From Takakia lepidozioides (Eukaryota; Plantae; Bryophyta), in NCBI GenBank assembly GCA_030704615.1, contig CM060731.1, forward strand, positions 29,078,001 through 29,142,000: DNA of 64,000 nucleotides, given 5' to 3'. This document shows positions 1-64,000 of this stretch, in pieces (the stretch's first letter is position 1; the number at the start of each line of letters is the position of its first letter). The position numbers and the translations under genes were made by a program. The notes under the pieces are model-generated. The model was not told where the DNA came from and ran no database searches. It was given only the letters and a program-made list of their open reading frames with translations.

Positions 1-2668
1 GCCATGGACCTCTTTCCCCTAAGCTGCCAGGGCAGTGTTCAGATTGACATTTGGCACAATTCCAACTTTGATGATATCCCCATGCACCTCTTGCCCTTCT
101 CCAGGCCGGCTGCCAGGCTTGCACAAGCATTGCAAATGCACACAAACATGATGTGCTTCCCCCATCATTTGCTCATAGCTCTCCAAAGCCTCCATCCCAC
201 GTCCCTGCCGTGCATACCATGCAAGCATTGCACTCCACGACACCACATGTCGTTCAGCCATAGTGTCGAACACTCCCTTTGCATCCTAGATGCACCCACA
301 TTTTGCAAACATGTTCACCAGGGTTTTGTTCAGAATGACATGTGGTACAATAATAACTCTGAAGATGTCGCCATGCACCTCTTTCCCTAAGCTGCCAGGG
401 CAGTGTTCAGATTGACATTTGGCACAATTCCAACTTTGATGATATCCCCATGCACCTCTTGCCCTTCTCCAGGCCGGCTGCCAGGCTTGCACAAGCATTG
501 CAAATGCATACAAACATGATGTGCTTCCCCCATCATTTGCTCATAGCTCTCCAAAGCCTCCATCCCACGTCCCTGCCGTGCATACCATGCAAGCATCGCA
601 CTCCACGACACCACATCTCGTTCAGCCATAGTGTCGAACAATCCCTTTGCATCCTAGATGCACCCACATTTTGCAAACATGTTCACCAGGGTTTTGTTCA
701 GAATGACATGTGGTACAATAATAACTCTGAAGATGTCGCCATGCACCTCTTTCCCTAAGCTGCCAGTGTAGTGTTCAGATTGACATTTGGCACAATTCCA
801 ACTTTGATGATATCCCCATGCACCTCTTGCCCTTCTCCAGGCCGGCTGTCAGGCTTGCACAAGCATTGCAAATGCATACAAACATGATGTGCTTCCCCCA
901 TCATTTTCTCATACCTCTCCAAAGCCTCCATCCCACGTCCCTGCCGTGCATACCCTGCAAGCATCGCACTCCACGACACCACATCTCGTTCAGCCATAGT
1001 GTCGAACACTCCCTTTGCATCCTAGATGCACCCACATTTTGCAAACATGTTCACCAGGGTATTGTTTAGAATGACATCTGGTACAATTCCAACTCTAAAG
1101 ATGTCGCCATGGACCTCTTTCCCCTTTTCCAAAGCTGCTAGGGCAGTGTTCAGATTGACATTTGGCACAATTCCAGCTGTGATGATATCCCCATTCACCT
1201 CTTGCCCTTCTCCAGGGCTGCCAGGCTTGCACAAGAATTGCAAATGCACACAAACATGATGAGCTTCCCCATCCTTTGCTCATAGGTCTCCAAAGCCTCC
1301 ATCCCACGTCCCTGCCGTGCATACCCTGGACCAGCATCGCACTCCACGACACCACATCTCGTTCAGCCATAGTGTCGAACACTCCCTTTGCATTCTAGAT
1401 CCTAGATCCCTTTGCACCCACATTTTTGCAAACATGTCCACCAGGGTATGGTTCAGAATGACATTTGGTACAATTCCAGCTCTGAAGATGTCGCCATGGA
1501 CCTCTTTCCCCTTTTTCCAGAGCTGCCAGGGCAGTGTTCATAATGACATTTGGTACAATTCCAGCTTTGATGATACCCCATGCACCTCTTTGCCCTCGTC
1601 CAGGCTTGATGCACCCACATTTCGCATACATGTCCACCAGGGTATGGTTCAGACTAACATTTGGTACAATTCCAGCTCTAAAGATGTCGCCATGGACCTC
1701 TTTCCCCTTTTCCAGAGCTGCCAAGGTAGTGTTCATATTCACATTTGGTACAATTCCAGCTTTGATGATATCCCCATGCACCTCTTTGCCCTTCTCCAGG
1801 CCGGCTGCCAGGCTTGCACAAGCATTGCAAATGCACACAAACCTGATGTGCTTCCCCCATCATTTGCTCATAGCTCTCCAAAGCCTCCATTCCACATCCC
1901 TGCTGTGCATACCCTGCAAGCACATCATATCGCACTCCACGACACCACATGTCGTTCAGCCATAGTGTCGAACACTCCCTTTGCATCCTAGATGCACCCA
2001 CATTTTGCAAACATGTCCACCAGGGTATTGTTCAGATTGTCATCTGGTACAATTCCAGCTCTGAAGATGTCGCCATGCACCTCTTTCCCCATTTCCAAAG
2101 CTGCCAAAGCAGTGTTCGATTGACATTTGGCACAATTCCAGCTTTGATGATATCCCTATGCACCTCTTGCCCTTCTCCAGGGCTGCCAGGCTTGCACGCA
2201 CATTGCAAATGCACACAAACATGATGTGCTTCCCCCATCATCTGCTCATAGCTCTCCAAAGCCTCCATCCCACGTCCCTACCGTGCATACCCTGCAAGCA
2301 TCGCACTCCACGACACCACATCTCGTTCAGCCATAGTGTCAAACACTCCCTTTGCATTCTAGATGCACCCACATTTTGTAAACATGTTCACCAGGGTATT
2401 GTTCAGAATGACATTTGATACAATTCCAGCTCTGAAGATGACGCCATGGACCTCTTTCCCCTTTTCCAAAGCTGCGAGGGCAGTGTTCAGATTGACATTT
2501 GGCACAATTCCAGCTGTGATGATATCCCCATGCACCTCTTGCCCTTCTCCAGGGCTGCCAGGCTTGCACAAGCATTGCAAATGCACACAAACACGATGTG
2601 CTTCCCCCATCATTTGCTCATAGGTCTCCAAAGCCTCCATCCCACGTCCCTGCAGTGCATACCCTGGA
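1..2668 (-). repeat. Tandem array of a degenerate PLS-class PPR gene fragment (unit about 368 bp, roughly 7 copies, probably continuing left of the window)
   Basis: 'ccctaagctgccag' recurs at 17, 385 and 753. The minus strand translates to PPR P/L/S motifs (MFDTMAERDVVSWSAM..YARQGRGMEAL, GKEVHGDIIKAGIVPNV.LNT.LVNMFAKCG). The unit length is not a multiple of 3, so no continuous ORF exists. Confidence 0.9.
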
Positions 2669-3340
2669 CCAAGCTGACTCTCCCAAGAACCTTGTAAACA
2701 TCAGCGAGGACTTAAGTGCGCAGCAGCGATAGGGCTTAGTGGGGCTTAGTGCTTGAGGGGAAAAAAAAAACATCGCATTGGTCCATGAGAACCACCATGG
2801 TGCAGCTAAGCGAGCAGAGATTGAAACACGACCTGCTAAGACCAAGCTGACTCTCCCAAGAACCTTGTAAACATCAGGAAGAATACCAAATCATGGTACT
2901 AACAGGAGCCCAAAAGCCCACATTTGCAGGATGGACAAACTTCTTCACATCCTACATTAAGAAAAAGCCACACCTTGCGATTGCGATTGTCCCATCATCA
3001 TGAAGGATCGTAAAAAACTCATGCGAGCTTTGCTCCGTGCTGCAAATTCAAGGCCGAGTCTAATGGGAGGGCAAAACAGGCTGAAATAGGTCGAAGAAGA
3101 AGGTGCCCTAACCACATTGTCGTCAACCTTGTGTCATGACCCATGGAGGATTTGACAGACCATGAACCCAAACGGACCTCTTGTGTGTGTTGCTTGTGTC
3201 TGTAGTCAGGTAATGTCGGATTGTCCATGAGAACCACCACGGTGCAGCTGAGCGAGCAGAGATTGAAACGCGACCTGCTAAGACCAACCTGCACGAGGAC
3301 TTAGTGTGCACAACAACGATAGGGCTTAGTGGGGCTTAGT
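2669..3340. repeat. Dispersed repeat block, internally duplicated and permuted; homologous to 50118-50489
   Basis: 'ccaagctgactctcccaagaaccttgtaaacatc' and 'gggcaaaacaggctgaaatagg...gaccaa' are shared with 50118-50489. Confidence 0.85.
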
Positions 3341-3346
3341 GCATGA

Positions 3347-3428
3347 GGGGGAAAAAAACAACGCGAGGAGTTTGAACCCGCGACCTCGCGACACGCAGGA
3401 GGAGCCCTTACCAATACGCTACATGCAC
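3347..3428 (-). mobile_element. tRNA-derived (SINE-like) element
   Basis: Minus strand has box A-like TAGCGTATTGG, box B-like GGTTCAAACTC and then a T-run. No convincing cloverleaf. Confidence 0.5.
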
Positions 3429-3669
3429 ACATTTGAAATTTCCCCCCAAAAGTATGTATATATTGTATATACGTGATGGGCAACTTTTTAAGTTTTTTTA
3501 ACCTTTTCACAAACCCTATCAGCAATTTTTTTTTTAATTTTAATAAATAAATTTTAAGGGAAACCGCATGCCCTTGAGGAGGGGGAAAAATTAACCCCCT
3601 TTCATTTATGGGCCATGAGACCTACAGGAGGATCAACGCCCAGACATACCGTCGTCACAAACAATCCCA

Positions 3670-3745
3670 CACATGGAGTCATGCAGCGGGATTGAACCCT
3701 GAACCACCAGGGCGACACACTCTGCACTTACCAGCCGATGTGCTT
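3670..3745 (-). mobile_element. Second tRNA-derived (SINE-like) remnant
   Basis: Minus strand has box B GGTTCAATCCC with a degenerate box A (..CGGCTGGTAA). Confidence 0.4.
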
Positions 3746-3794
3746 CATTTAAAGCTTTTGCACTTTGATTTTTTTTAAAAAAAATTCATTTTAG

Positions 3795-5404
3795 TGGTTA
3801 CAAGTGAGCACATAGATGTATTCCATGGAGATAAACAAAACTGTTCATCCGGTGTCTTCACGGTGGATGTATCCTATGGAGCGTTACATGAAAGATCTTA
3901 AGGGATACGTTAGGAATTACGCAAAGCCAGAAGGGAGTACGGCTGCAGGGTATGTTCTGGATGAGGCCATGGGGTTCATGACTGAGTATATGCAATCATT
4001 TGATGCAACTCAACAGCGGACTTGGGATGCAAATGCGGAGGAAGGGGTTGAGGACGAGGTCTTCGAAGGTGTCGGCAAAAAGCGGGACATGACTGGAGCT
4101 GGGAGAAATGCAGCACAAATTTTGTATTTGTTGAACAATACCAATGTCATGGCTCTTTGGGCGCAGTGAGTACTTCTTTTCATTGCACCTTATTCATATC
4201 AAGTTCAATTTCAATGCTGATTGTCACCAGTGTAATCAGACCACCCACAAAGTCACAAATGTCAGTGGTTCATCCTGATTATAACCAATGCTGTAGTAAC
4301 GGAATGTCTGAGTGAGTGACTTGTTGGAAGAGCATGTTCATTTACAAGTCATTCTGCTCACTCCTCCAGTGGTTTGAAACAGTGGTTTTCAAAGTATCAT
4401 TCATGCTAGGTATTTTTTGCTAAGTAATGCAATACTTCATTGCTAACATGTGTCATTCTTGTTGCCATTTTGTGACAAAAAGTATGCAACAGAGAAGGCA
4501 CAATTCACAGCAGACAGAGAGGCATGTGGTGATGAGTGGCGTGCTAATCGACGTCTACCTTATCAGATCAGCCAATACCTAGGTCATTAGATGGTCCCAC
4601 GGCTCTAAATAAAGAAGACCTGGCTATGTTGGCTACCATTCAAGCGGCATTTGTGCAACCAACCGCTATTCCAGTTGAGCAAAGTGATTCAGAGGGTGAC
4701 GAATATGTTTCAGATTCAGAATAAAATTTATTGTTGGAACCATTTGTTCAATAGCATCATCCCACAATGGTCTGGCCACTTGTCTGTTTTTCAAAGTCTG
4801 TCACAGCTGCACAAACCACTTAAAGTTTTTCATGTATCACCCAAAAAGTGGTACCAATCACTGTTGTGTAGGCAACCACTCATGAGCAACCACTAGCATA
4901 GTGCTTCCAATTACTGCAGTATCTTTCACCATCCACTCTCACCACTGTCAAAGTGGTACAAATCAATGAGGTGTCTTTAACCACTCAAGATCAACGTGCA
5001 CTGTCCCCGTCCACGTGGAATATTATATTTATGAATTAAAATATATTTCCAAATAATAAATCACAAATAAAATTTGAATTATTACACGTGGAGTAGTAAG
5101 TGGTTTCAACCACTTCCCATCACTGAGGTGTCTATAACCACTCACAATGTACCACTGCATTCGTCCACGTGGAATATTGTATTAATTAATTAAAATATAT
5201 TAGCAAATAAATAATAATAAATAATAATAAATTATTACACGTGGACTACTAAGTGATTGAAACCACTTCCAACCACTGTCTGTGATGCCACCGTGGGATT
5301 TCATTGGGATTAACCACTGGCAAGTGGTTACTAGTGGTTTATAGAGTGGAAAAAGACAGTAGTGGTTAAAGGGCCAGTGGTTATTCCACGTTTTTCTTCT
5401 AGTG
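3795..5404 (+). mobile_element. CACTA/En-Spm DNA transposon, 3' portion with terminal inverted repeat
   Basis: ORF 3816-4169 has the TnpD/DUF4218-type motif (PV..RWMYPMERYMKDLKGYVRNYAKPEGS). Subterminal ACCACT/AGTGGT repeats are dense. The element ends in ...tttttcttctagtg (reverse complement CACTAGAAGAAAAA) at 5404. Confidence 0.88.
3816..4169 (+). pseudogene. CACTA transposase (DUF4218-like) fragment
   Basis: RWMYPMERYMKDLKGYVRNYAKPEGSTAAGYVLDEAMGF. Confidence 0.85.
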
Positions 5405-6198
5405 AATGGTTTGTAACATGGCTGTGTTGTTATCATACATCTTCTATATGACATAAGGTCCTTTCCATGGTGCCTTCATCAAATTGATCCTTCCTCTTCA
5501 TCTGAATTCTGGTCATGTTATCTGCTGCATCAGCACGTACTTCTTCCACATGATATAATTCATGTTTCCTGACTTAATTGAATCCTCCAATTCCATTCTC
5601 CTTCCCCATTCATTCTCATGGTAGGTAACAAGAACTCCACTGGAAGTAAAAGCTTCCATACCATAAACTAATTGGAATGGTGTATACTTGGTTGTGACTT
5701 TAGATGAAGTTCTGTATGACCACAAAGCTGTCAGAAGCTTTGTATCCCAATCTGTTATGTTTGCATTGACTATCTTTAGCCAAGATAGTGCATAGTATTT
5801 TGTTTGTGGCCTCTGCCTGCCCATTACCCTATGGGTAATAGGTTGTACTTTTCCTGTGCACAATCATGAATTCGTTAATCAGTAGTTCTATAGTCTCGTT
5901 AATGAAGTGACTTCCCTGGTCACTAATAAATTCCAGAGGACAGCCAAATCTTGTGAGTATGTTCTCATACATGAACCTTGCTGTGGACTTAGCTGTGTTG
6001 TCCCTCAGAGCTTTAGCTTCCACCCACTTTGTAGTATAATCAGTTGCTGTGATTATATACTTGTTCTGTGTATTTCTGGCTGGTGGGTTAATTGGTCCAA
6101 CAAAGTCTAGTCCCCATTTCTAAAATGGTTCAGTAGGCATCGTAGGATGCAAAGCCATCTTCCCAAATCTCTGCAATGGTCCTAGCATCTGACACTCA

Positions 6199-6891
6199 TC
6201 ACAACTCTTGCAATATTTTGTGTACATCCTTGAACAAAGTAGGCCACCAGTAAGCTGCAAGTCGTATCTTTCTACTGGTAGTCTCTTCTTCAAAATGACC
6301 TCCAGCCACTCCTTTATGAACTTCCTCCAAAACTTTATTTACTTCATGGTGGTACAAACATCGTTTAAGAACTCCATCAGGTCCTAGCTTATACATTCTG
6401 CCCCCTATCATAGTGTAAGGTAAATCCTTGATAGCTATTCTCCTCTTCTGCTCCTTCCCATAACTAGGTAGGCACTGACCATGAGTAAGGTAGTATCTGA
6501 TTGGCCACTGCCAATCTAACCAATCATCTGCACTTTCCTGCACCTCCACTGCAAATAAACTCGCATCAGGTAGTTGGTCGTCTACTCCCGTGGCGGGCTC
6601 TCCTGTTGATAGACGTGACAAGTGATGTGCCACAAGATGCAAACGGCCAAGCTTGTAAACAACTTTGAACTCAAACTCGTGCAAGATTATTAACCATCTT
6701 GCTATCCTGCCACTTATCAAAGGCTTGTTCACCAGATAAATCAAACCCTGATGATCCACATAAAACATGAACTTCCTTCCCAATAAGTAATGCCTGAAGT
6801 TCTCGACTGCATAAATCATTGTCAATGCTTCTCTTTCAGTTGTGCTATAGTTCTTTTCAGCACTGTTCATCAACCTGCTAGCATAGTACAC
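6199..6891 (-). pseudogene. Gypsy RNase H / integrase zinc-binding region
   Basis: ORF translation: NYSTTEREAL..FYVDHQGL..RIARW..H..GGHF..YWWPTLFKDV. Confidence 0.9.
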
Positions 6892-9800
6892 AGGTGAATC
6901 TATGTTTCCTGTAACATTTGGGCTAACACTGCTCCCAATGCTTCTCCTGAGGCATCACAGTGAATATGAAATACTACATGCCAATGAGGGTTAATCAGCA
7001 CAGGTGTAGTTGTTACTGACAATGTAAGTTCCTCAAAAGCCTACTGATATTCAGCTGTCCATGCAAACACTGCATCTTTCTTCAGAAGCTTGCTCAATGG
7101 TGCTGTTATCTGTGCATACCGTCTGACAAATCTTCTATAATAACTGGTTTGTCCAAGGAATCTCCTTAGACTCTTAACATTCCTGGTGGTGGAGAGCTTA
7201 ATAGCCTCTGTTTTCTAGGATCCACAAGCAGTCCCCTCTTACACACAATGTGTCCCAAAAGTACCCCTGAGTTCACACAGAGAAAGTACATTTTCTGGAT
7301 TCAGGCCCAGACCTCTCATCCTGCATCTGGCCAAACATAACTCCAATTTATGCAAGTGCTCATTCCTAGAACTGTACACACTGAAGTCATCTAAGAACAC
7401 ATGCATGAAATCATCCAGATACTCATGGAAGATTCACTTATCACTCTTTGAAAAGTTTGCTGGTGGTGCATTACAAAGTCCAAAAGGCATGACTTTGTAT
7501 GCATAAGCACCCCCAGTCTGATGATGAAAGCTATCTTTCCCTGGTCTTCTTCTACCACTTGCACTGGTTATACCCACTGAAGCCATCCATGAATGAGGAC
7601 ATCTCATGGCCTGCCACAGTGTCCAGCACCGCTTCTGTGAATGGCAAAGGGAAGGGATATTGCTTGGTACAAGCATTCAAATCTTATAGTTCACAAAACT
7701 CTCAGTTTACCATTCTTCTTGGGAACTATCCACAAGGGTGACAAACCATGTTGTATACTCTATCGGTATATGAACTTAGCCTAACCAACTTCTTGATCTC
7801 TTCTCCAACCTTCTGTGCTAGTTGGATTCATCTGTACCTTGCCTGTTTGATTGGTACTGACCCTGGTTCCAGTTCAATCTATGTTGACAGATCTCAGGTG
7901 GTATCCCTTTGAGATCCTCATAGCTCTAAGCAAATACATCTCTGTATTTGATGAACAGACTCTTAGCTCCTCAAAGAATTATGGCTCCAAGTCGCCCCTA
8001 CTTCACATTTTCTCGTTCCTCCCCAGTTCTGCATTCACTTCTCTCACCTGCTCATCAGCGTGATTGGCCAACCAATCACTACTTCATCCTGTAAAACTCA
8101 CAGTGGCTGGTCTTCTAGGATTTTCCATTTCTCCCTCTCTTCTTCATAGAAATGTGGTGGGAACTGCTGTTTCACCCTCAATTGGTGTTGTTATTATACA
8201 CCACAGCAGATACCTTTTTGAACAACTTAGGCCTTCCAGTTGCATTTCTGCAACCTGCTCCCACTCGGGTTGCAGCGAATAGGGTAGCTTCCTGCTCCTC
8301 ATCAAGTCATTCCTCCAGTCATACTCTCTGACTGCTCGAGGTCTTCTCGTAGTAGCAGTCTACTAGATTTCTTAGTGGTGATTTGTATCTTGCGCTCCCA
8401 TCATGCACAGTTTGTAACTGGGAAATTCCAGTCATGGAATACCCTGGCCTGTTTCAGCCATGGTCGACCCAGCAATAAAGAGTAAACTTCCATGACATCA
8501 TCCATTTTCAATACAGTCACTGTGATCTTAAAGATCATCTTTTGAATCTGTATCTTAACTCCTCTTATCTAAGCTAATGGCCTGAACCACTTCTTTGATC
8601 CGCCATTGTTACTGTGAATGGGGCTGGTTTCATTACTTAGACAAGCTTCTGCATTAATTGGTCTGTCATGATATTCACTCTAGAGCCTCCATCTATCAGT
8701 ACATCAGTCAGGTCTGTGCTTCCAATTCTCAATTGGATTACTGGCATAGAATCAAAGTCCATGACTGTTTCTCGCCCTTCCGGCTTCACATTATAACTGG
8801 TCACCTTGCTGGTTCATGCCTGTGTGCTATTGTCACATGGGCAATCTGATTGATTGCTTGATACAACCTATGCCTACAATGAGGTGCCACAGCTAATAGC
8901 TGTCCAATGGTAATCTCCGCTTTGGACTAGCATATTACTTCAGCCAATAGTCCCTCATTACCCTGCACTTGGGCACTTCTTTCTTCACTCATTTTCACTT
9001 ACTTCATCTTCTCTTTCGAATCAGAGGAATCTGCCATAGGGATATCAGTACTCTTCTGTATTTCCCTTATGGTATCAGTCACTTCCTTGTGCAGTTCCTT
9101 CTCATCTCTCCAAGCCTCATCATCTTCAGGCACATCACTGCCATTTTCATTATCATCATCGTCTCATCTACTGGAGGTATTAGTTTAGTTTTGTTCTGGT
9201 TACTATCAGTACTACTTCTGGTACAACATAGGCCAACCATGTGAGGCTGCCACCCACTGGGCCCTCATTCACATGAGCTCTCATCTCTTCTAGTTCTAAT
9301 CCAGAATGAACAGGAGGCCTTGCGATGTCCTGCCTGATTACAATAGTAAACACAGGTCTTCCGATTGGGTCCCGACCTTGATCTGCTCTGGGATTATTTC
9401 TATAATCTGATTCCCTTGCTGGTAATTCCCCCTTGGATTACACTGAGAGTTGCCTCTGGGATTGCCTTGCAATTCCCTCTTGGATTACCTCTCATTTCCA
9501 TACCATTGTTATAAAACACAAAAGCCCTTCCATAGTGGTCCTGATCATTGTTTCTTCTTGGCTGGGCTGCACTTGACTGCCCCTTACTTGCCTAGTTCTC
9601 TTGCCAGCGTTCTTCTGTTGTAGTAACAATTCTCAATAGAATGTTCATCCATTTGACAAATAGTACAGTGTTTCTCCTTCATGTGGCATTCAGTTGTGGT
9701 ATGGCCTTCATTTGGCATTTTGCCACACCAAACACCCTTCCTCCAAGGTTGCAGGCCCTCTATGGCATACTTCTTCAGGAATCTCCTCCAGTCTTTTCTC

Positions 9801-37414: not shown

Positions 37415-40400
37415 ATGTCGCAGAACTTTTCTACCTCGTCACGGCAGGTTAGGGTCCCTAATGATACGACAATGAGGCATTCAGGGGTGAACGAGGGTGC
37501 CATGTTCGCTCATCACATGGCGGAGCGGCCAGCACCTTTGGTCCATGCTTCTCCTCCTGCTCGTCCTCCTCCCTCTGACTCTCCAGGTAAGGCGACCGCT
37601 GCGACTATGCCTACCAAAAGATCTGGCTGTGTTGGCGAATTGGGTGTCTTTCTCTCTCCTCGTTACTGCTTCCTGTCCACCCTTTCTTGTGCTTACACGT
37701 CTGCTAGTGCGTCCTTAGATGTATGTGAGAGCTGCCTTGAAGCTGAACTTGCTTTTCATGTGCAGATAATTTGGACTCCGAGCTTTGGCATGCATGTGCT
37801 GGTCCCCTCACGTCGCTGCCACCCGTGAACAGTATTGTCATGTACTGGCCGCAAGGGCATATTGAACAGGTGACGTTTGAACGCGTTACTAGTTGTGGAC
37901 TTGGAGCGGTTCGTTCTGTGTCTGTCTCACCGCCAAATTGTTGGTGTTCACACTCCCATAGTTGTTCACCGTCGAGTTAGTCTGAGTAGTTTTGTCATAA
38001 ACGCGTTCGATTTCATTTGTGGCAGGTGTAGTTCTACTTTCGGCTTTTGTCAGTAACACTGATGCTTTCATTGCTGACAGGTTGCGGCATGTACGACTCA
38101 ATCAGTGGTGGATGAGCTTCCTAAATACAGTTTACCCCCGCACATTGTCTGTCGACTCGTCGAGAATACACTGAGTGTAAGTGAATACACCATATGTTCT
38201 GTTGTCTTTTTCCCATCAAATATATTTACAGGATTTTGTTCTCACAGCAATCTGGGTCAAGATGTATTCTTTGTATTAATCACATTTCATCGTTACTAAC
38301 GGAGTTTCGAACTGTCCGAGTGTTGCTTTGCAGGCGGATCCAGATAGCGATGAGGTTTTTGCCCAGATGACCCTGAATCCTGTGCCTGAGGTATATCTTC
38401 AACTGAGGATACTCCTCTCATCTGTGCTCTCTGGGATTTCATGACTGGTGATAGGTTTGCTTGGAAGTCGTTTGAGTTGCTATGTCCAGGATTTCACTCG
38501 GTGTCATGTTGTGGTGTTACAGGGAGATGTAGCTTCATGGTCGGAAGAGCCTCCAGCAGTTCCCAAGAGGAACTTGCACATGTTTTGTAAAACTCTGACT
38601 GCAAGTGATACCAGCACACATGGAGGGTTCTCTGTTCCAAGGCGCGCAGCGGAAGACTGTCTGCCCCAGCTTGTGAGCTATTCAACCCCCGATAGCATCT
38701 TGTTGATGTCATTTTAGTCACTGAAATTGTCGGTGCAAAGATGCATGGAAACTAGTTTTAGTATCATGGCATGTGACTATCCGAGTGTAACATGTGCCTG
38801 AAATGTGATCTTTCCTGCATGCTGTTGTTCAGGATTACACAATGAATCCACCATGTCAAGAGCTGGTGGCAAAGGACTTGCATGGAGTTGAGTGGAAATT
38901 CCGTCACATTTACCGAGGTATCAGACAATTTCTGTCACTGACACAACCTAGTTAAAACGTGTGTATACCTGTTATCTTCACTGCGTATGTGTGGCTGGTT
39001 CTGTACTGAAGTTGGAGCTGGTACGCCATGGAAAAACCCCAGGAAGAGACTTTCCTCAGCTCATATTCTGAGAGTAGTGGGGGATGTCTCTTGAGCTCCT
39101 ATCTGGACTGGGAAGACTGAACAGTGTGATGTGTGAAGTGTGTATTGGAGCACTCAGCCCAGAACATTTGCACACAGAAAGTTCTAACGCGAACATGGTA
39201 TGTGGATGTATGACCATGGTGCAGGCCATCCACGAAGGCATCTTCTTACCACAGGCTGGAGTGTGTTTGTGAGCACCAAAAAACTAGTAGCAGGGGACTC
39301 TGTCCTTTTTCTAAGGTACATGAGTCTCCATTGTCTTCTTTCAGAGTCCTTGTCGTTGATGGCCCGTAGTCCCTTGTGCGAAGTTGGGAATGTAACTTGT
39401 TGCGGGGATATATCACATTCTGAAGTTGTGTTTCAAGTCAAGGTGGGGGTTTAAGAGGCTCCGGTGGTTTGAGAAGTACTGATGAATGCTTCTGTTGACA
39501 GGGGGGAGAATGGACATCTGAGATTAGGGGTAAGGCGTGCAGCCAAACAGCAGCAGAATCGGTCATCTTACTTTTCCAGCCAAAGTATGCACCTCGGTGT
39601 GCTTGCTGCTGCTTCGCATGCTGCCAGAGAAAAACTTCGGTTCAGTGTCATCTACAATCCAAGGTGCGTCTTCTTTGCATTCTATCTGACCTGGCATCAT
39701 CCACTTGAAGACAATCTGTCACGCATGTTCTGGATTACCTGTGCAGAGTTGGGTGCACAGTTCATACTTCTTGTCAGTATTCTACGGCCAATGCTAGCAA
39801 ACGCTTTGACTTCTCTTGTGTAGTTGGTTTCTTTGTTCTCATGGAAAGTAGCTGAGCTTTGAAAGCAGGAGCAAGATCTTGCTACTGGAGAATCAATTCC
39901 TGAAGTGCGATAGCAGATTTGGCATCTGAGGGGCTTTGAACAGCTCATTTCAAGTGGGCCTTTTTGTTTGAACCACAGCAGTGTTCGTGTCAGAATTATG
40001 TATGTGCACCTGTGTGGTGTGTGTCTTTCAGGACAAGCCCTTCAGAGTTTGTCATCCCTTATCACAAGTGTGTGAAGGCCATCAACAACCCCCTCACAGT
40101 GGGAATGCGATTCAAAATGAGATTTGAGACAGAAGACTCATCAGAGAGAAGGTCCGGTAGATTCCACTCTCTTGATTCTTTAGGCAAACATATTTGAAGG
40201 CTGGAGCTTTTATTGGGTGACCCTCCCTGGTGTAACGCCACATCGTTCATGGAAGTTCTCCCTTGTTCTGATAAATGTTTCCTGGGTATAAAATATTATG
40301 AGGTGCCTTATAACCAAGCTATGATTACGAAGTATGGAAACTAGGGTATGAATGTAAGGCTTGTCGCTTAACATATCTTCGCAGACAATATTGCAGGTAT

Positions 40401-42721
40401 GCAGGGACTATCACCAGCGTCGGTGATGTTGATGCAGCCAGATGGCCGAAGTCATCATGGCGTTCACTTAAGGTACTTTGAGTGCTCTATAACTTATAGT
40501 CGTGGCATAGATAAACTCCCGGTTCTGTCTCAATTAAATTGTGTTTATTTTTGGTGTTTTCTGTTCATTATTAGAAGTTCAAGTTCTAAATATTTACTTA
40601 TGAGGGTGATATGGTAGGTTGGTTGGGATGAATCTGCGGCTAGTGAAAGGCACGAAAGGGTTTCACCTTGGGAGATCGAACCATTTATTGCTCCAACAAC
40701 CATGGCCCCTACTCCTTTGGGACCCCGACTAAAGCGCCGACCTTCTCTGCTGACAGAAGTTTCTCCCCTTGGTATGCATATTACTACTCTGTACACTGCT
40801 TTTTGTAGACATCCATCCTGCTGTTTGAGTTTCTTGGAAGTTACTATTTTGTGGCCCTCCCGCTCATTTGCCACCTACAATGCCATAAACTTGTGATAAA
40901 AAAGCCTTAACTCTGGTGGTACATTGGTGCAGGAGCAAGAAGTGCGCAGGACTTTCAATCAAATAAATTATCAAGAGTATTACAAGGCCATGTACCTCTG
41001 GACTTGGGTATGTGTGGAGGGGACGACGAGGAAGCGGCATCATCCAGGCCTCCAAGCTGGCTGGTTAAGAGTGAAGATGGTTATAAACGTGAAGGGGTGT
41101 CTCGAAGTAGGGGAGACGGTTGGACAACTTCGCACCGGCCTGAGAATGGTCATGTTTCAGAGATGCTCCTGAGACAGATTCATCAAGAACGGCAGGAGAA
41201 ACCCCAGCTTGATGACTTGGCCACCTCCCTTCAGCTTAGTCCTGTGCCACTGGCATCATACATGAGGCCCCATCCTCTGGGTGAGGCAGGTTTGAATCTT
41301 TCTTACAGTAGTCACATTGTAACAGAGCCATCAAGCAACAAATTGCAGTGGCAGTCGCTTACTGGATCCTCGCAACAGCCTTCCTTGCAGGATTCTTTAC
41401 CTAGTTGGTTCACATTAGCAAATGAATCAGCATCTTCATCTCGTCCAGTGGTTGGAATGCCTGAGCGGTCACTGCCCATCAATCAAACTCAGATGGAGAA
41501 AGGTTTGCTTGGTCTGCAAGGACACTCTTTGTCAGTAGGTGTCTGCCCCAAACAGCCAGAGCTGCAGCAGGTCTGCACACCCAGCCCGCAGGTGGAGCAA
41601 GACTGCAAGATATTTGGGTTCACCTTGACAAACAAGCGGACATGGCCGGTCTCCAGTCCCCAGACCACTCAAGGTGAGGATTCTGAAAGCTCAGGGCATT
41701 GCCCAGTGGCAGAAATAGCTAAGCCTTCTACCTATGGCAGCTTGGGGACAGGAGCATCACTTGTCATGGTTGAGCAAGAGATAATCACACCAAATATCTG
41801 GAGGCAGTACTGTTGGTGGCCAGGACAGGTTTTCAAATGGAGGAGCTCAAAGCTGGATACGGCCTGTACGAAGTTACACAAAAGTGAGGACAACAACAAT
41901 ATCTTGCTATTTAGTGTAATTTGGTGTTTTTCTTGATCTCCAAGCCTTCAATAGGTGTTGAGTGAAGGTCATTGACCTTGAGCACCTTGTTCTGATGGTA
42001 AGATGTCGAACCATCTGAATTATTTGTACTACTGTGGGATATTGTGTATGGAGTACTGTCATCTCAATGTGCCTCAGGTGTACAAGCAAGGCAAGCCGGG
42101 GCGCTCCATAGATCTATCCAGGTATGAAAACTATGACGAGCTAAGGCGTGGTCTTACAACGTTGTTCAACTTGGAAGGGCAGCTGGATGACCTCGAGAAG
42201 GGCTGGCAAGTGGTCTATACAGACCATGAAGATGATGTCCTCCTTGTGGGGGATGATCCGTGGGTGTAAGTACATTACCTGACCCCATTTGACCATCTAC
42301 CCATGCATATTTCTTGTAGCTATTGACCCACAGGGAATCGTACGTGAGATTGTGCTTGAAACCTCACCTTCTGCACCTGGGTCAGTGAGTTAGGAGGATT
42401 AATTGTGCCCTGCTGTCTCCTTCCCTGTGGTTTTGCGTATCTCTGTGTCTGTAGTTGAGGAATGTGGTAAGCAGGAGTTTGTTTAATCTTCCTTGTTACC
42501 TGGGTAGTAATTTCTGAAGCTATAGAAGGTGGGCTGTGTTCAACAGTGAATTTTGCAGTTGCGTCCGCAGCCTGAAGATACTGTCACCAGCAGAGGTGGC
42601 TGGACACGATGTGGGGAAAAGAGGATATGGAAGCTCTGATGATGGAAGGGATAGTTGTAGGCCCCTTGATGTCCAAGAGTCCACATCACCCTCAATGCCA
42701 ATGGACCATATATGTGATTGA
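37415..42721 (+). CDS. ARF: Auxin response factor, class B (repressor type). Exons approx. 37415-37586, 37766-37869, 38081-38176, 38334-38390, 38523-38672, 38833-38917, 39225-39315, 39502-39663, 40032-40151, 40397-40472, 40618-40771, 40933-41883 (or 41828), 42078-42265, 42547-42721
   Basis: [21 protein letters not shown]; B3 domain [41 protein letters not shown]; ARF domain [38 protein letters not shown]; CKIFGF repression motif; PB1 [30 protein letters not shown]. Confidence 0.95.
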
Positions 42722-47352: not shown

Positions 47353-47665
47353 TCAAGCACCACAGGCTCGACCAAGGAACATGTACGCCCCCTTGCCAAC
47401 CTCAATACAAGATCGACCTGGCTCCTTTCTGACACCCCTGACCTTCATCATGTTTCTCACCTTTGCAGTATCATCCCACCTGCCACCTGCAGCATAGATG
47501 TTTGATAGCAATACATCGTGTTCATCCCACGTGAGGATAGATGTTGCCGCACGTTCAACAATCTCCACATTGCCATGGATTCTGCAGGCACCAAGCAAGG
47601 CCTTCCGCACCACAGCATCTGGATTGATTGGCATTTTATTAATCAGGTCCGCAGCAGGCAAGTGG
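47353..47665 (-). pseudogene. PPR E-domain fragment
   Basis: MPINPDAVV.KALLGACRIHGNVEI.ERAA..VLLSNIYAAGGRWDD.AKVR.MMK.RGVRKEPG.S.IEV. Confidence 0.9.
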
Positions 47666-47669
47666 GGAG

Positions 47670-47787
47670 ATGGATGAAAAGGCCCTCGAAACACACTTGG
47701 AGACCAAGCAGCAAGTGATGCTTGATTCTTTGTGGAAGCTCAATGTGGCTGACATTGAGAGTACTCTCTCCCATGTTTGCCAATCGG
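47670..47787 (+). pseudogene. DnaJ X-domain exon fragment
   Basis: MLDSLWKLNVADIESTLSHVCQ followed by a GTATGG donor-like site. Confidence 0.75.
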
Positions 47788-54413: not shown

Positions 54414-55730
54414 ATGCAGGTTAGTCTTTCTTCCTGGAACATTAGGGGTCTAGGCTCGGACAGGATGGCTAATAAGAAAATAAAGCTCTCCATCTGGCTT
54501 ACACCCCTTATATCCTCACAAGCTATTGTTTTTCTTCAAGAACATAAGCTCTGTGCCAGGAAAATTCAAAGCCTCACAGATCAAATCTGGCCAAAGACAG
54601 CAGCTCTTTGGAAACCCTCTAGTGATGGCACAAAAGGAGGTACTACTATCCTTCTATCCCCTTCCCTAACACAATTCATTCTCAAGGATGAGATCTAGGA
54701 CCCGGGAAGAGTTCAATTTTGCTCCCTGCTCTTCCCCAATGATCCCGAGCCCACGGGCTTCATTAACATTTATGCACCTAACTCTGCCTCAGACAGATCG
54801 GCTCTTTGGTTCAAACTCAATGACAAGATGGCTGTAGAACCAGCAATCCACAAAATTTGGGTTTTGGCTGGGGACTTCAATATGGTGGAAAACTTAGAAG
54901 AAGAAAAGGTCAGTGTGCGCAAGGTTCCCAAAACTCCCACCACCTTTCAGCTGATGAGGACTTGGCATGGAAAAGCCTTACTCAAAACCATAGCCTTACT
55001 GAAATAGATAGGCCCCCGCATCGTGCCTCCTCCACAAGCCCATTCTTCACTTGGACAAATAATAGAACAATTCTCGACCTTTGTATGGCCAGGCTGGATC
55101 GTTTTTATATATCGCTCGCTCTGGCCCACTTTGCACTTCAAAACCACCAAGAACCAATCACCAAGGTTTTGACCATGCTTTGATCTCTGCTACACTCAAG
55201 CTTCCTAATTCCCACCCGAGAGGGAGAGGCATCCATAAGCTTAACTCCTCTCACCTTTGTATCCCCTTCTTCCTCGAGGCAATCAAGAAAGCGTGGACCT
55301 CTGCTGGGCTTCACCTTGTCTGTCCCATCCTCAAATTTCAAGCCAAACTGACAGCTGCCAGCAAAGTCAGTCAAAACCTCAGCAGACATATCACTGCCTC
55401 CCAGAAGAGAAAAGCTCAAGCTCTTAAAAAATGCCTGAGTGTTTGTCAGAAAAAATTGGAGTCCAGATCCTGTGACAACCATACCTACCAAACTTACCTG
55501 GAAGCACGCATTAACCTTGAGAACTATTACCTCCTCCAGGAATCCAAAATCAAGATGCAAGCAGGAATCAATTGGTCAACTAAGGGAGAAAAGATGTCTA
55601 AATATTTTTTCCAAAAAATGAAACTCCGTCGAGCCGCTCACACCGTAGCTGATTTGTACAATTCTGCTGGTGTCAAAACGACCAACCCCAAAGAAATGAC
55701 AGCTGCAGCCTTTACCCATTTCGAGACTTT
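54414..55730 (+). pseudogene. LINE ORF2 endonuclease and linker
   Basis: APE motifs, with stops and frameshifts. Confidence 0.88.
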
Positions 55731-56300
55731 GTTGCAGTTGGAATGGCTTAGAGAGGTAACCATTGAGGAGAACTTGGCTGCTGGCCCCCCTTAGGAGGAT
55801 AGTCACCCATTGACAGAAGCCCTCAGACAACCCTGCTTTACGAAGAACCGTTATCAGGAACGTCCAGTCTACTCTATCGAAGGCTTTCTCAAAGTCAAGA
55901 AGCCACAGAGCCAAGGCTTGGTTCGAATTTGTGGCATAAAAATCGGCTTCTTCGGCCAGTAAAACATTGTCTAGGATGTACCTCCCTTTAATGAATCCAG
56001 CCTGCCCTATTCTGATCATAGCATGGAGTAGAGGTTGGATGCGCAGGGCAAGGGCCTTGGCAATTAGCTTGTAGGCCACATTGAGCAGGGTTATGGGTCT
56101 ATAGTTTCCTATGTTAGACCTATCTCCTTTCTTAAAAAGCAGCGTTATGACACCCTGTGTCATAAAAGCAGGCATGTGGTCTACATATTTGATACCATTG
56201 GCCATATCACAAAAGTCCTTGGACATAGTGGACCATAGTGCCTTGAAGAACTCCACCGGCATTCCGTCTATCCCAGGTGATTGTTGTTGTTCATAAGCTT
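55725..56300 (-). pseudogene. LINE reverse transcriptase N-terminal half, inverted relative to the element
   Basis: SPG.DGMPVEFF, NYRPITLLNVAYKLIAK, QAGFIKGR.I.DN and LDFEKAFDRVDW on the minus strand. Confidence 0.92.
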
Positions 56301-57027: not shown

Positions 57028-57735
57028 TGGGGGCCAAACTCAAAGACTCTCAATGAAGTAAAAAGAATTGTCAGGAACTTCATCTGGGGAGCAAGCTCAT
57101 CTGAGCAAAACATGAGACCCCAAGTCTCTTGGCACCAAATATGTCTCCCCAAAAAACAAGGGGGCCGCCCTAGGCTAGGACTTTTGGATCCTGAAACTCA
57201 AATCAAAGCCTTACTTGGTAAATGGCTTCAAAGATATGTTGGACCAGAAGGTGGCTGGTGTCAAGGACAAGAACATGACAGAACACAAACAAGAGATAAG
57301 ACTAGAGGTACAAAACTAGACAAGAAGTCAAGGTCGGCATGGCCGAATGCATGGTAGGTGAACATGAATCAAGATGATCTTTATAACAATGGACAAGAGT
57401 ACAAAATACTGGAACTCGACTCGGATATTGGAATGCTAGAAACTGGACTAGAATACCAGATACTGGAAACTGGACTGGATACTGGAAGCTGGACTGGAGC
57501 ACTGGACTTGGAACAAAAGTAGCTTGAACTTGTGTTGGCGAGACTAAGTGTCCAGTCTCGCCTCCTATATATACTGGCTATAAGAAGCTTCCCCAAGAAG
57601 CTTCCCTTATGGAGGTTTCTTGCTGGAGAAGTTTCCAAGATTAAACAAAAGTTTCTTGATGGAGAAGCTTCCTTAAACAAATGAGGTATCTTGATGGAGA
57701 AGTTTCCTCCAAAGGAAGCTTCCTGAGTAGTTTCC

Positions 57736-59330
57736 GTCCCGAACATCTTCAAGGAAAACCAGATGCTCTTTCTCGACGATCGTATATTGCGCCAAAAGAA
57801 GGGGATGCAACTTTTGACCAACAAAAATCCATGATCCTGAAACCAACAAATCTCCAATTGAATATGTTATCCATGTCCACCTATGACGATGCAGAGATCA
57901 TAAAGGAGATTCAGGAAGCACTGAACAGCGACCATTTTGCTACGACACTACGAAGTCAACTAAATCAACCTCGAGACAACCCACATGTTACAAACGACTT
58001 CGAATTCAAAGATGGCTTACTTTACTTCAAGGGACTTCTCTATGTACCTCCAGGACCTACACGACTTCAAATTCTTCAAACATGTTATGATCTTCCGGCT
58101 GCAGGACATTTCGGCTTCAACAAAACATTGGAATTGATATCCAGGGACTATTGGTGGCCGCAGATGTGGAAACTCGTGAAAGAATTTATAAAATCTTGTG
58201 ACACGTGTGCTAGAGCGAAGGGACCACGACATCGACCTTACGGCCTTCTTCAACCATTACCCATTCCCAAGGGTCCATGGTCGTCCGTGTCTATGGACTT
58301 TATTATGGACCTTCCAATTTCCAAGACCACCGATTCAATCCTTGTTATTGTAGATCATTTTACGAAGATGGCACATTTCATTCCATGTAATAAGACGGTT
58401 ACCGGCAAGGAAACTGCAAGACTCTTCCTCAATAATATCTACCGCATTCATGGACTCCCGAAGGATATCGTATCTGATCGAGGACCACAGTTCATATCAA
58501 ATTTCTGGAGGGGATTATTTCACATATTGGATACTAAGATCAACCTCTCTACAGCTAATCATCCACAGACTGATGGTCAAACTGAACGTGTAAACCAGAT
58601 TTTGGAGCAGTATCTTCGCTGTACGATGAATTATCACCAAAATAATTGGACGGACCTTCTGTCATTGGCTGAGTTTGACTACAACAACACTATACATTCT
58701 TTGACCAAGCAAACTCCATTTTTCTCTAATTATGGTCATCATCCTCGAGCAAACCCTTTCCACATGAAAACTGTTGGAAGCCCTGCTGCAGAAAACCTTG
58801 CTACTCATCTTGCTACGATTCACAAGGAGCTTACATCTCACCTCGCAGAAGCTCAAAAACAATACAATGAGTATGCAGATCAACGTCGTCAACTCCAACC
58901 CCAGTTCAAGGTCGGAGATCGTGTGTGGCTTCTTCGACGAGACATACAAACATCGCGACCATCAAAGAAGTTGGATTATCAACGCCTGGGACCATTCAAA
59001 ATTATTCGACAAATAAATCCGGTCAATTTTCGGCTTGAACTCCCACGAAGTATGCGCATCCATCCAGTCTTTCATGTTTCACTATTGGAGTTGTATCATC
59101 CATCGAATATTCCAGGGAGAGTTTCCGTACCACCTCCACCAATCGAAGTCAATCAGGAAATTGAGTATGAAGTCGATGAAGTCTTAGACTCTCGCATCAA
59201 AGTATAAACGTCTTGAGTATTTCGTACATTGGAAAAGCTACGACATCAGCAACCGAACGTATGAACCTTCATCCAACCTTGCCAATGCCTCTGACAAAGT
59301 CCATCAACGATATCCAGCTAAGCCCCGAGC
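57736..59330 (+). pseudogene. Chromovirus integrase with GPF motif and chromodomain (inside the inverted segment)
   Basis: GHFG, SMDFI, IVSDRGPQF, HPQTDGQTERVNQ, LGPFKI, HPVFHVSLL, EYEVDEVLDSR..YFVHWKSY..YEP. Confidence 0.95.
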
Positions 59331-59489
59331 TACACGTCAATGAGACGTCACAACGATGATGTCAGCCAAGCTAGTTTCAAGGAGAAGACTCTATATTCAA
59401 TGTACATGATACATGCTAAGGAAGGAAGAGCACCACATATCAGTATATATAGCTACACTTCCAGCACTCTTGCATCTTGTATTGGCAAC

Positions 59490-59891
59490 ATGGAGTCACA
59501 AGAACCAGATACATTGGAGTTGTCGCTTACCCAACTACCAGATCAGCCGTTCCGACTCTCACGACCTTCAATATCACGCCGACGCTCTCGAGACGATGGG
59601 CCACCAATGCGACGCGTACTTCCTCGTCTGGACTCCGTACGACGGCAAGTGGAGCCTACTCGAAGTCTGATAATTCTGTTGGAGATTGAGGCTTCGGACC
59701 CAGAGGGCAACGAAATCATGTTTGAAGGCAGCTTCGAAAATCAGAATGCTCAAATTACTGCGTGGTCCCAAGTTCAAGGTGTTGGACACTATCGATGGTT
59801 ACAGGGACCTATAAATCATTTGAGTCAAGAACAAAGAGCCGAATACTTGGCAAGTATCATTCGTCGGATTTTGGATTTTCTCCAACTCTAA
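59490..59891 (+). CDS. Additional 133-aa ORF of unknown function between the chromodomain and the PPT
   Basis: Uninterrupted ATG-TAA ORF in the element's sense orientation. A TATA-like 'tatatatag' lies at about 59444 and the PPT 'agaggagggg' at about 59933. Confidence 0.5.
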   Translation: MESQEPDTLELSLTQLPDQPFRLSRPSISRRRSRDDGPPMRRVLPRLDSVRRQVEPTRSLIILLEIEASDPEGNEIMFEGSFENQNAQITAWSQVQGVGHYRWLQGPINHLSQEQRAEYLASIIRRILDFLQL

Positions 59892-60127
59892 GCAAGTCCA
59901 AGATTTTACCGCTCCTCGAGGAACTCGGCGCTAGAGGAGGGGTGATGTCAAGGACATAGCCCAGAAGAACTTACCAGGAGTAAATACCAGAAGTTATCAA
60001 GTTACCATGTTACCGAAAGTTACCATGTTACCGAAAGTTACCATGACTTACCGTAATTTATCATGATCTACCATGATTTACCATTACTTACCAAGTTACC
60101 GGGAGCTACCAAATTACCAAGAATAAC

Positions 60128-62129
60128 AAAATCAAACCTTGCTAGTGACATACTCCATTTTGCCTGACGTCGATTCAAAACACGAGCACTCATAAAATAT
60201 TCGAGGTTTTTGTGATCGGTATAGACAGTGACATGATGTTTAGCTCCCTCCAATAGATGTCGCCACTCCTCAAAATCATCGATAATCGCTAGAAGTGCTT
60301 TGTCATGTATTTCATAATTGATCTCCGCAGCGGAAATTTTGCGAGAACGAAAACCAACAGGGTGGAGTCGGCCATCTGTACCGTATTGAGAGAGTATCGC
60401 GCCAAGTGCAAAGTCCGATGCATCTGCTTCTAAGGAGAGTGGTTTAGATGGGTCTACATGTACCAGTATGGGAGCCGTTGTAAATGTCTGCTTCAGTCTT
60501 TCAAATGCCTGGTTAGCCTTCTCGTCCCATACAAATTTGTCTTTCCCTGTAAGTCGTGTCAATGGTGCAACAATTTTGGAGTAGTCATCGATGAAGATTC
60601 TATAGAAATTTGCAAAACCCAGAAAACATTGTACATCTCGGACCGAAGTTGGTTTAATCCACTCGATGATGGTCTGTATTTTCTTCTGATCCATAAAGAC
60701 GCCTTTGTCGGAAATAATGTAGCCTAGAAATTCGACCTCAGATTGATGAAAAAGACATTTCTCCAACTTGACATATAGTCGTTTTTTTCTTAATTTATCA
60801 AGGACTAGGCGTACATGGCGGCCATGTTCTTCTTCATTATGTGAAAATATCAAAATGTCGTCCAAATAGATGACTACAAGGTTATCTAAAAATTCTCGAA
60901 AGATGTCATTCATCATATGTTGGAAAATTGCTGGAGCATTTGTAAGACCGAAAGGCATAACACTGTATTCAAAATGTCCATATCTTGTTCGAAAAGTTGT
61001 TTTCCATTCGTCTCCTTCTTTTATCCGTACAAGGTTATAAGCTCATCTCAAGTCGATTTTGGTGAAAATCTTCGCTCGTCCTAGCTGGTCGAGAAGCCCA
61101 GAAATCAGCGGCAACGGATAATGATTCTTGATTGTGACTTTGTTGAGACCGCGATAGTCGACACACAATGCGTAATGATCCGTCCTTCTTTTTCACAAAC
61201 AAGATAGGCGCCCCCGCGGGTGATTTTGAATGTCGGATGAAGTACTTTGACAAATTTTCATCAATGTATTCATGTAATGCAGCCAACTCCGTCTGGGATA
61301 AGTTATAGATTGGGCCGAATGGTGGTTGGGCTCCTTCTTGTAACTCAATTTCACAGTCATAAGGTCGATGTTCTAGCAATATGTCTGCATTTTTCTTCTC
61401 GAAGACATCTTTGAAATCTTGATATTGAGCGGGTAATGTTGAAGTACCTTTGTCTGTTGTGGTATTGATCGGAGTCGCATAAAGTGCAAATGTCGCCTCC
61501 TTTTTTGTAGCTCTCATGAAAGCTTTAGCTCCAAGGAATAGGGGTTGAATACCTTTGTTATTTCTACATTTTTGTCTTATAGAAATTTTTCGCGATCGCC
61601 AATCGATGTTGGGATTGTGAAGTACGAACCAGAGAAGTCCAAGGATCACAAGATTCGTTGGAGACTGGATGCCATTGAAAATAATATGTGATGCTTGATC
61701 TTTAAGTTTTACTTCAAGTGGTCGAGTTTCATGGTCCACATTTCCTGATGCTAATGGTCGTCCATCGATGACTTCAACGGGGGCCGATAGTTTCTTCTTT
61801 ACGAGCGTTAAATTGTTTTGCTTCGCAAAGTTTTTGTCCATAAAACAAGTTGAAGCTCCTGAGTCCAAAAGTGCTTCTACAGTGATATCTCGATTTTGCA
61901 CTCTGATTTTTATCGGAACTGTGAAGTAAGGTGCAGGGTCTGGAGATAGAAAGAGATTTTTTTTCGGTAAGGAATTTGTGGTGTCCAGCCGCATGGTCCC
62001 TACTGTGACTGGACATCTTCGTTTTCCGACCTCCTCGTATCGAACACTTGAGTTGTGCCCCGAACTTTGAATCTGCTCTTGTTGGGGCAGTTTAATGCTA
62101 TGTGATCTTCTTCTCCACAATAGAGGCAT
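60128..62129 (-). pseudogene. Chromovirus protease-RT-RNase H
   Basis: [65 protein letters not shown]; frameshift at about 61165. Confidence 0.95.
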
Positions 62130-63040
62130 AATGCATTCGAGCGCCGTCTTTGTTTTTCTTGTGGCGTCAATGGCTTGAATCGGACAACATCAATCGGCAT
62201 AGGATCACTATTGGATGTCTGATGGATCGTTGTGTTTGGTGTCGTAGTAGCAGTGACATGATGTGTCGTAGACCATCCATATCGCTTCTTTTGACGTCTT
62301 TCGAATAAACGATTATCGCATGCAATGACTTGGGTGATGAATTCACTCAGTGTGCTCACGTTTGGCATTGTCAGCAACAAATCTTTTACATCATCTTTTA
62401 GCCCACATCAAAACTGACTAATGAGGCTTTTCTCATTCCAGTCGAGGTCGAACGTAAGTTGTCGAAATTCGGCAGCATAAGCGGAAACATGACGTGCTCA
62501 TTGTCGAAGATTTCGCATCTTTGTTTCTGCAACTCTCTCTCTATCATTTTCTCCAAACGTTGCAGTGAACTCGGACATGAATGCTTCAAAATTGTATAGT
62601 AAATGCGAATTTTTTTCTAATAGCGGTGCAAACCAAGATAGGGCAGTGCCTGACAGAAAGGTGCCCACGAATCCCACTTGAATACCTTCATCGGGATAGC
62701 GTTGTGGATGTAGTCGTAGGAACAGTCGTACTTATTGAACAAAACTGCGAAATCTTGATCTCGTCCCATCAAATTTCTCGGGCATGCTAATCTTTGGTTC
62801 TCTCGTAATCTGTTGAAAAGGAACCGTTGCAGTAGTAGCTGTTGCAGTAGGGACTCGTATGGTTGAAGATCCATTGTTCGACTCTTTTAACTCTGAAATT
62901 TGTTGTTGCAAATTGTGGAGAGCGTTGCCAAGATCTTGAGACTGATCAGCTTGCAATTGGGCGGTAGATGTACGAAGTTCTTGCATCTGGAGCTGAAGAC
63001 TCTGCAATGTGGTGACCATTTCCACAAATGTACCTTCCAT
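62000..63040 (-). pseudogene. Chromovirus gag, frameshifted
   Basis: [40 protein letters not shown]. Confidence 0.9.
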
Positions 63041-64000
63041 CTTAACTAACTAAAGAACAAACTGCAGTCTCGCCATCTGTCAAGGACGTGAACATGACAG
63101 AACACAAACAAGAGATAAGACTAGAGGTACAAGACTAGACAAGAAGTCAAGATCGACGAGGCCGAATGCATGGTACGTGAACATGAATCAAGATGATCTT
63201 TATAACAATGGACAAGAGTACAAAATACTGGAACTCGACTCGGATATTGGAATGCTAGAAACTGGACTAGAATACCAGATACTGGAAGCTGGACTGGAGT
63301 ACTGGACTTGGAACAAGAGTAGCTTGAACTTGTGTTGGCGAGACTGAAGAGTGTCCAGTCTCGCCTCCTATATATACTGGCTATAAGAAGTTTCTCCAAG
63401 AAGCTTCCCCTATGGAGGTTTCTTGCTGGAGAAGTTTCCAAGATTAAACAAAAGTTTCTTGATGGAGAAGCTTCCTTAAACAAATGAGGTATCTTGATGG
63501 AGAAGTTTCATCCAAAAGAAGCTTCCTGAGTAGTTTCCCAAGTTACTCTTGGTAATTTGGTAAACTCCCGGTAACTTGGTAAGTAATGGTAAGTAATGGT
63601 AAATCATGGTAAGTTATGATAAGTCATGGTAACTTTTGGTAACATGGTAACTTGATAACTTCTGGTATTTACTCCTGGTAAGTTCCTCTGGGCTATGTCC
63701 GTGATAGCTGGTGGAAACTCATGGTTGGAGCTTCCATCTCGGAATCCTCCCCTATGCAAAACACTGCCTGGGCACCTTCTTCCCGTTGGATTTTGCAAGG
63801 CCTTAACCACAAAGCTCAGGGCTCCCCACTTTGGAACTCTATTTGGAAGGCTTGGAACTACTTTAGACCTTGCCTTAGGAAACAGAAGCCAGCTTCTTTT
63901 CACGAAGTATTGAGACAACACCTTTTCCTTAATTAACTCCAACAATCCCTCCCGGGAGGAAAAAATCCAAGCCAAAAGATGGGCAGGTTGGGATTCAAGA

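Follow-up and report, generated by a model that had tools for sequence, protein, structure and literature searches.

The question raised by this locus is how a retrotransposon whose primer-binding site (PBS) differs from the usual tRNA-Met site begins reverse transcription. An earlier reading, made from the sequence alone, had proposed that the element, which lies in the 64-kb stretch of DNA analysed here (the window), primes with the beginning of its own RNA in the manner of Tf1 of fission yeast.

The element and its priming motifs

By its sequence, the element is a decayed chromodomain-bearing Ty3/gypsy chromovirus that spans 6448 bp of the minus strand, 63706 to 57259, and is bounded on both sides by a 5-bp CCAGC TSD. 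Its features are as follows.

63707..63711, minus strand: TSD CCAGC, left copy
63078..63706, minus strand: 5′ LTR, 629 nt, ending ...GTCCTTGACA; at its beginning it has drifted away from the inverted terminal repeat that the 3′ LTR retains
63369..63376, minus strand: TATA box candidate, at the same position relative to the primer in relatives
63356..63365, minus strand: U3 arm, a 10-nt copy of the PBS sequence and 5′ arm of the promoter hairpin
63335..63346, minus strand: predicted self-primer at the start of R; 63346-63336 matches the PBS of the window copy, and the family register is likely 63345-63335
63065..63075, minus strand: PBS, 2 nt past the 5′ LTR
62000..63040, minus strand: gag with a CCHC zinc knuckle, from a three-frame translation with several in-frame stops; the lower end is approximate, and it overlaps pol in another frame
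60122..61994, minus strand: pol (protease-RT-RNase H), frame change near 61161-61219
57736..60127, plus strand: internally inverted segment with integrase, chromodomain, 3′ UTR, polypurine tract and the first 182 nt of the 3′ LTR
57708..59334, plus strand: integrase and chromodomain, frame change near 59200
59933..59942, plus strand: polypurine tract, 3 nt before the start of the 3′ LTR at 59946
59946..60127, plus strand: 3′ LTR, first part, within the inversion
57259..57735, minus strand: 3′ LTR, second part, with TATA from 57573, U3 arm 57562-57553 and R primer copy 57545-57536; the hairpin is kept with a shorter loop
57254..57258, minus strand: TSD CCAGC, right copy

Aligned over 622 positions, the two LTRs show 29 differences. 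The inversion (~2.4 kb) is bounded by a break that separates RNase H from integrase and by another within the 3′ LTR, and the related protein P0005 aligns with residues 259-624 on the minus strand and 618-1162 on the plus strand. In seven contigs of the DNA run X1, 57734 and 60122 are joined across strands, so an uninverted LTR is present in other copies; in the window copy ~57736-60127 is either a real inversion or an assembly error. With stops in gag, and frame changes and the inversion in pol, the window copy is incapable of transposing by itself. Over the element, contig depth adds up to hundreds of times the value for the flank at 63786-64000. This would suit an abundant family, although depth is not equivalent to copy number. 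A chromodomain-like translation at ~59165-59290, read by eye across the frame change, has Y, W and Y at the aromatic-cage positions, and the chromodomain region can be aligned to the C-terminal end of P0005, a protein with PF00385.

Two further observations concern the non-coding parts of the element. Its long 3′ UTR (59340-59930, plus strand) contains a stop-free frame of 189 aa (59322-59891) with no Pfam match, and contigs from runs X7 and X8, guessed to be RNA, lie over part of this UTR; the guessed RNA runs yielded few contigs, and these do not bear on expression. In U3, at 63545-63670 and 59985-60127, a degenerate 9-10 nt repeat with a TTACCA core is present in many copies, their number differing between the LTRs.

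The sequence-only reading had described an 11-nt PBS other than that for tRNA-Met 2 nt after the 5′ LTR, with its complement 30 nt from the start of a TATA box, and both are found in the window. The PBS, TGGCGAGACTG, lies at 63075-63065 on the minus strand, 2 nt (GA) past the LTR end ...TTGACA at 63078, and differs from the tRNA-Met site quoted in that reading. Its exact complement, CAGTCTCGCCA, lies inside the 5′ LTR at 63346-63336 (minus strand), downstream of the TATA box candidate TATATATA (63376-63369, minus strand), and a third copy of the motif, GGCGAGACTG (10 nt), occupies 63365-63356 of the same strand, in U3. The PBS 11-mer has just two occurrences across the 64-kb window, the PBS and the LTR complement. 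When the 629-nt LTR was shuffled with its dinucleotides preserved, and a complement in it to a stretch starting 0-5 nt past the LTR was sought, an 11-nt complement was found in 0 of 3000 shuffles and a 10-nt one in 1 of 3000. A published rule for self-primers, given in the available part of PMC6317226, calls for at least 10 bp of complementarity to a region starting 0-5 bp past the LTR; the window copy has 11 bp at an offset of 2.

Primer and PBS among copies and relatives

While the pairing proposed in the sequence-only reading stands, its start at C63346 probably does not, since sister copies and relatives place the beginning of the primer at A63345 as the likely position. At the first C of the complement (C63346 in the 5′ LTR) the 3′ LTR carries a T, which agrees with a start at A63345. 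Position 63065, the base giving the 11th pair in the window copy, differs in other copies: it is T on the plus strand in 23125 of 27882 depth units (83%, 22 contigs) in run X1 and in 100.7 of 113.8 (88%, 4 contigs) in a second DNA run, X5. Contigs that diverge just behind 63075 number 13 in X1 and 3 in X5, and three contigs have an inserted A together with 63076 T>A. These variants fit other family copies having a GT spacer and an additional T ahead of TGG. Because the contigs of other copies differ at 63065 and behind 63075, the family pairing is likely 63345-63335, one base downstream of the register first proposed and starting at an A after a pyrimidine. A PBS that starts with TGG 2 nt from the LTR appears to be peculiar to the window copy.

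Relatives comprised 79 loci from metagenome contigs and one from a viral collection, the latter with no primer candidate. A strict scan (perfect match of at least 10 nt, TATA upstream) could be applied to 48 of the 80 loci, the other 32 being too short upstream. The layout was found in 12 of the 48, representing 5 distinct sequences, and 8 of the 12 belong to one family. Strict-scan candidates in L004, L037 and L050 were dropped as being of low complexity or away from the LTR end, and one in L075 was dropped for a TATA distance of 10 nt; the true L004 junction was located by eye.

The tree group of the window contains 11 loci (L001-L010, L014), and the junction between LTR and PBS is visible in six of them. 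Five of these six close relatives have a PBS matching their own LTR (L001 12/12, L002 12/12, L008 11/11, L004 10/11 and L007 9/10 with the best LTR copy), with sequences that differ from one relative to another, a pattern that speaks against tRNA priming. The PBS of L006, where the junction is visible, has no match to its own LTR; L009 has no LTR, L013 shows no junction, and the 5′ LTR of L014 is truncated short of its end. Beyond the group there are four further distinct pairs (L023, L024, L043 and the L031 family). In all nine distinct relative pairs the match begins at an A preceded by a pyrimidine, at 31-37 nt from the start of the TATA box, and in eight of the nine the spacer is GT. The steady TATA distance and the pyrimidine-A step lend indirect support to a primer at the extreme 5′ end of the mRNA. 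The primer sequences differ among the nine, each still matching its own PBS.

In L001 and L002 the junction is found downstream of the matched pol, the arrangement being permuted or tandem; L002 holds, at 143-9144, two tandem element copies that are 84% identical and share a common junction LTR region. The LTRs of L001, L002, L004-L008, L010 and L014 also have a nearly constant CAC(C/T)A(G/A)T after the 3′ end of the variable primer. Possible roles for this motif are to mark the site of cleavage or to pair with the end of U5 plus the GT spacer.

In Tf1 the PBS is recopied from the primer in each replication cycle. Given this recopying, covariation of primer and PBS fits self-priming but does not amount to selection acting on the two sites independently. 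We consider it highly probable that this family, likely of the moss Tcn1 group, uses some 11 bases at the beginning of its own RNA to prime reverse transcription; self-priming is the best supported reading, the relatives having their own primer/PBS matches at the same TATA distance. Transcription would start at about A63345, the first 11 nt of the RNA would fold onto the PBS, and R would additionally pair with the end of U5. By analogy with Tf1, the RNase H of the element would cut after base 11, and the freed 3′ OH would prime minus-strand synthesis 2 nt from the LTR end.

The element has an RNase H domain, and in a fold of 63345-63040 the first 10 nt pair with the PBS. The fold of the whole 5′ leader is no better than that of shuffles (z -1.5). 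Pairing of R with U5 beside the primer is weak in the window copy and stronger in several relatives: in raw energies without shuffle control, the duplex of R with the U5 end has -4.3 kcal/mol in the window and -3.4 to -13.8 in 12 relative rows, and a duplex after the PBS has -4.6 kcal/mol in the window and -2.4 to -22.0 in relatives.

Two other sources of the primer have to be weighed. That the PBS binds a host tRNA, as in the tRNA-primed chromoviruses Tekay, Reina, CRM and Galadriel, with the LTR complement as a by-product, would suit the TGG with which the window PBS starts 2 nt past the LTR, a fit to the CCA end of a tRNA, and tRNA-Met is listed for 5% of Tcn1 elements. Yet other copies of the family appear to have an extra T before that TGG, none of the nine distinct relative PBSs starts with TGG while each matches its own LTR, and ten different PBS sequences cannot fit one tRNA. 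Because the relatives keep the match between primer and PBS with different sequences, self-priming is favoured and a tRNA primer is very improbable. ARAGORN found no tRNA genes in the 64-kb window.

Usual Pol II starts lie farther than 11 nt from the start of the TATA box. This bears on the other possibility, that transcription starts upstream of the promoter hairpin and that its CCA-ending stem is a tRNA-like mini-helix processed into a primer. The 3′ arm of the hairpin does end ...GCCA in the window element, but its 5′ arm begins 11 nt after the TATA start, too near for a usual Pol II start, the arms of relatives end otherwise, some self-priming relatives have no hairpin, and the stem would hide the primer. 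We regard such a mini-helix as barely credible and retain self-priming from the RNA's 5′ end.

A hairpin in the U3 promoter

The third copy of the motif had been read as forming a hairpin between the TATA box and the start, and folding of the 5′ LTR bears this out: the hairpin has -21.5 kcal/mol (z -5.7), and none of 200 shuffles was as stable. The two LTRs of the window element give z -5.7 and -5.5; both keep the stem, and the loop differs by 3 nt. Nine relatives from the group were folded, L003 being left out although it shows the L001 primer with a 6-bp arm. The hairpin is strong in the window, L001, L004, L005 and L008 (z -3.3 to -6.4), that is, in four lineages whose stems are unrelated in sequence, and weak in L002, L006, L007, L010 and L014 (z -0.1 to -1.6). 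Outside the group, L023 has z -3.6, L018 and L062 are borderline (z -2.3), and no hairpin was found on folding three distant relatives, L024, L043 and L066, all of which keep the primer/PBS match. On these folds, some self-priming relatives can do without the hairpin. The primer site recurs as a long exact copy only in the window and L005/L008, the copy in L001 being shorter and the stem of L004 built differently.

The U3 arm being upstream of the inferred start, it would, read-through RNA apart, be confined to the 3′ end of the transcript. Its most likely role, though on balance a doubtful one, would be to sequester the primer's 3′ copy and so leave the PBS to the true 5′ end alone. In that case, the correctly started 5′ end would be the sole usable primer, read-through transcripts would be disabled, and the U3 hairpin might help to dock the 3′ end of the RNA for the first strand transfer.

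Alternatively, self-priming may be right and the hairpin may have no function in replication, being a local duplication, a fold-back product or a promoter feature at the DNA level. The chance of this seems to us only a little short of even. The five weak hairpins in the group and the three distant relatives that lack one despite a kept primer/PBS match speak for it, as does L002, where the primer has changed and only a 5-bp stem is left. Against it stand the strong folds on unrelated stems in four lineages, and the fact that the hairpin is the most stable 40-mer in all four LTRs tested, these having been chosen as known folders. Moreover, the stem persists in both window LTRs while their loops differ, none of the 40 variant rows listed, out of 62, falls within 63332-63384, and the weak hairpins may be decayed copies.

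The U3 hairpin is the only part of this system that is possibly new, and it would explain how the second primer copy is kept from competing for the PBS. A partial literature search found no U3 hairpin over a self-primer, which does not establish its absence from print. Tentatively, the U3 copy of the primer site might be a fourth RNA element of moss self-priming retrotransposons, beyond the Tf1 pretzel, that locks the duplicate primer.

The host and known self-priming systems

An auxin response factor (ARF) gene and a PPR E-motif fragment in the window indicate a land plant. The multi-exon ARF gene (~38500-42720, plus strand) has B3, ARF and AUX/IAA parts, and the exon searched is closest to Physcomitrium ARFs. 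Among 18 matches, this exon (39503-39661, 53 aa) shows 74-78% identity to Physcomitrium patens and 59% to Musa/Ensete (banana family), with no fern or lycophyte names; the long middle exon gave no matches as a query. The host is likely a moss, as judged from this one short exon. A seed plant, for which the sequence-only reading had expected tRNA use, was rejected as host, the exon being nearer to P. patens than to the banana family, and that framing is unsupported given that self-priming has already been predicted for moss Tcn1 elements.

Elsewhere in the window, positions 1-2671 are a tandem array with a period of ~369 bp and ~90% identity between units. Remnants lie at 5832-6954 (minus strand; RNase H-integrase, 29% to P0005), 55579-56298 (minus strand; RT without a match to P0005), 3816-4166 (plus strand; DUF4218 fragment) and 47356-47739 (minus strand; PPR E-motif). 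The two RT/RNase H remnants are unrelated to the element.

A quick tree of 53 rows, drawn without Tcn1, Tf1 or seed-plant chromovirus references, placed the window in a group of 25 rows (support 83) among metagenome elements. Of the named rows, a chytrid protein (65%) is nearest, followed by elements of fish and frogs. No seed-plant names occur among the named rows of the 120 matches listed, most of which are unnamed, and a PDB search matched only Ty3 and more distant RTs.

The structure of the element agrees with Tcn1. Elements of this group have a mean length of 6357 bp (5.5-9.4 kb), a 5-bp TSD in 100% and gag overlapping pol in 60% (Neumann 2019 Additional file 5), and the window element has the CCAGC TSD, 6448 bp and gag and pol in different overlapping frames. 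With Tcn1 (REXdb) it thus has in common the chromodomain, the 5-bp TSD, a length of ~6.4 kb, overlapping gag and pol, a rule-defined self-primer and a likely non-seed-plant host. Self-priming is predicted for 83% of 1500 Tcn1 elements (Neumann 2019 Additional file 5, PMC6317226), and the available text of Neumann 2019 (PMC6317226) describes most moss and club-moss Tcn1 elements as lacking tRNA sites and predicted to self-prime. Additional file 1 or the FASTA file of Neumann 2019 may list the window family. For SM-Tcn1, the accessible part of Novikova 2010 (PMC2864245) reports no sign of self-priming. The descriptions of Tcn1 available from these two sources (PMC6317226, PMC2864245) are without a U3 hairpin over the primer, and the window copy differs further in being broken and carrying an inversion.

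Self-priming had thus already been predicted in print for the moss Tcn1 group, and the covarying relatives strengthen this prediction. Priming without tRNA in plants otherwise rests on the BLAST rule, and the covarying relatives also suggest the likely start base.

Outside Tcn1, the closest parallel is with Tf1/Tf2 of Schizosaccharomyces pombe, Tj1 and Tosmo1-3, which, as given in the portions available of PMC7175516, PMC4600332 and PMC5341516, share with the window element ~11 nt at the start of R that are complementary to a PBS just past the LTR. Tf1 RNA pairs with the PBS through its first 11 bases, and the RNase H cut falls between bases 11 and 12 (PMC7175516, available text), a pretzel of three duplexes supports self-priming (bioRxiv 2022.12.06.519325, in the part at hand), and Tf2 RNA started downstream cannot replicate (PMC5341516, in excerpt). 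The Tf1/sushi group, so far as these excerpts describe it, and the window element both have an RNase H domain and some R-U5 pairing beside the central duplex, although the three-duplex pretzel is weak in the window copy. In the same excerpts, the Tf1 pretzel uses only sequence downstream of the primer, whereas the window hairpin uses upstream U3 sequence, and experimental proof of self-priming is confined to Tf1 in fission yeast, that of the window element being predicted. Self-priming in plants is likewise predicted for the TAR lineage of Ty1/copia (Houba, Osr-1), at 89% of 203 elements (Neumann 2019 Additional file 5); TAR belongs to another superfamily, while the window element has the gypsy order RT-RH-INT-chromodomain.
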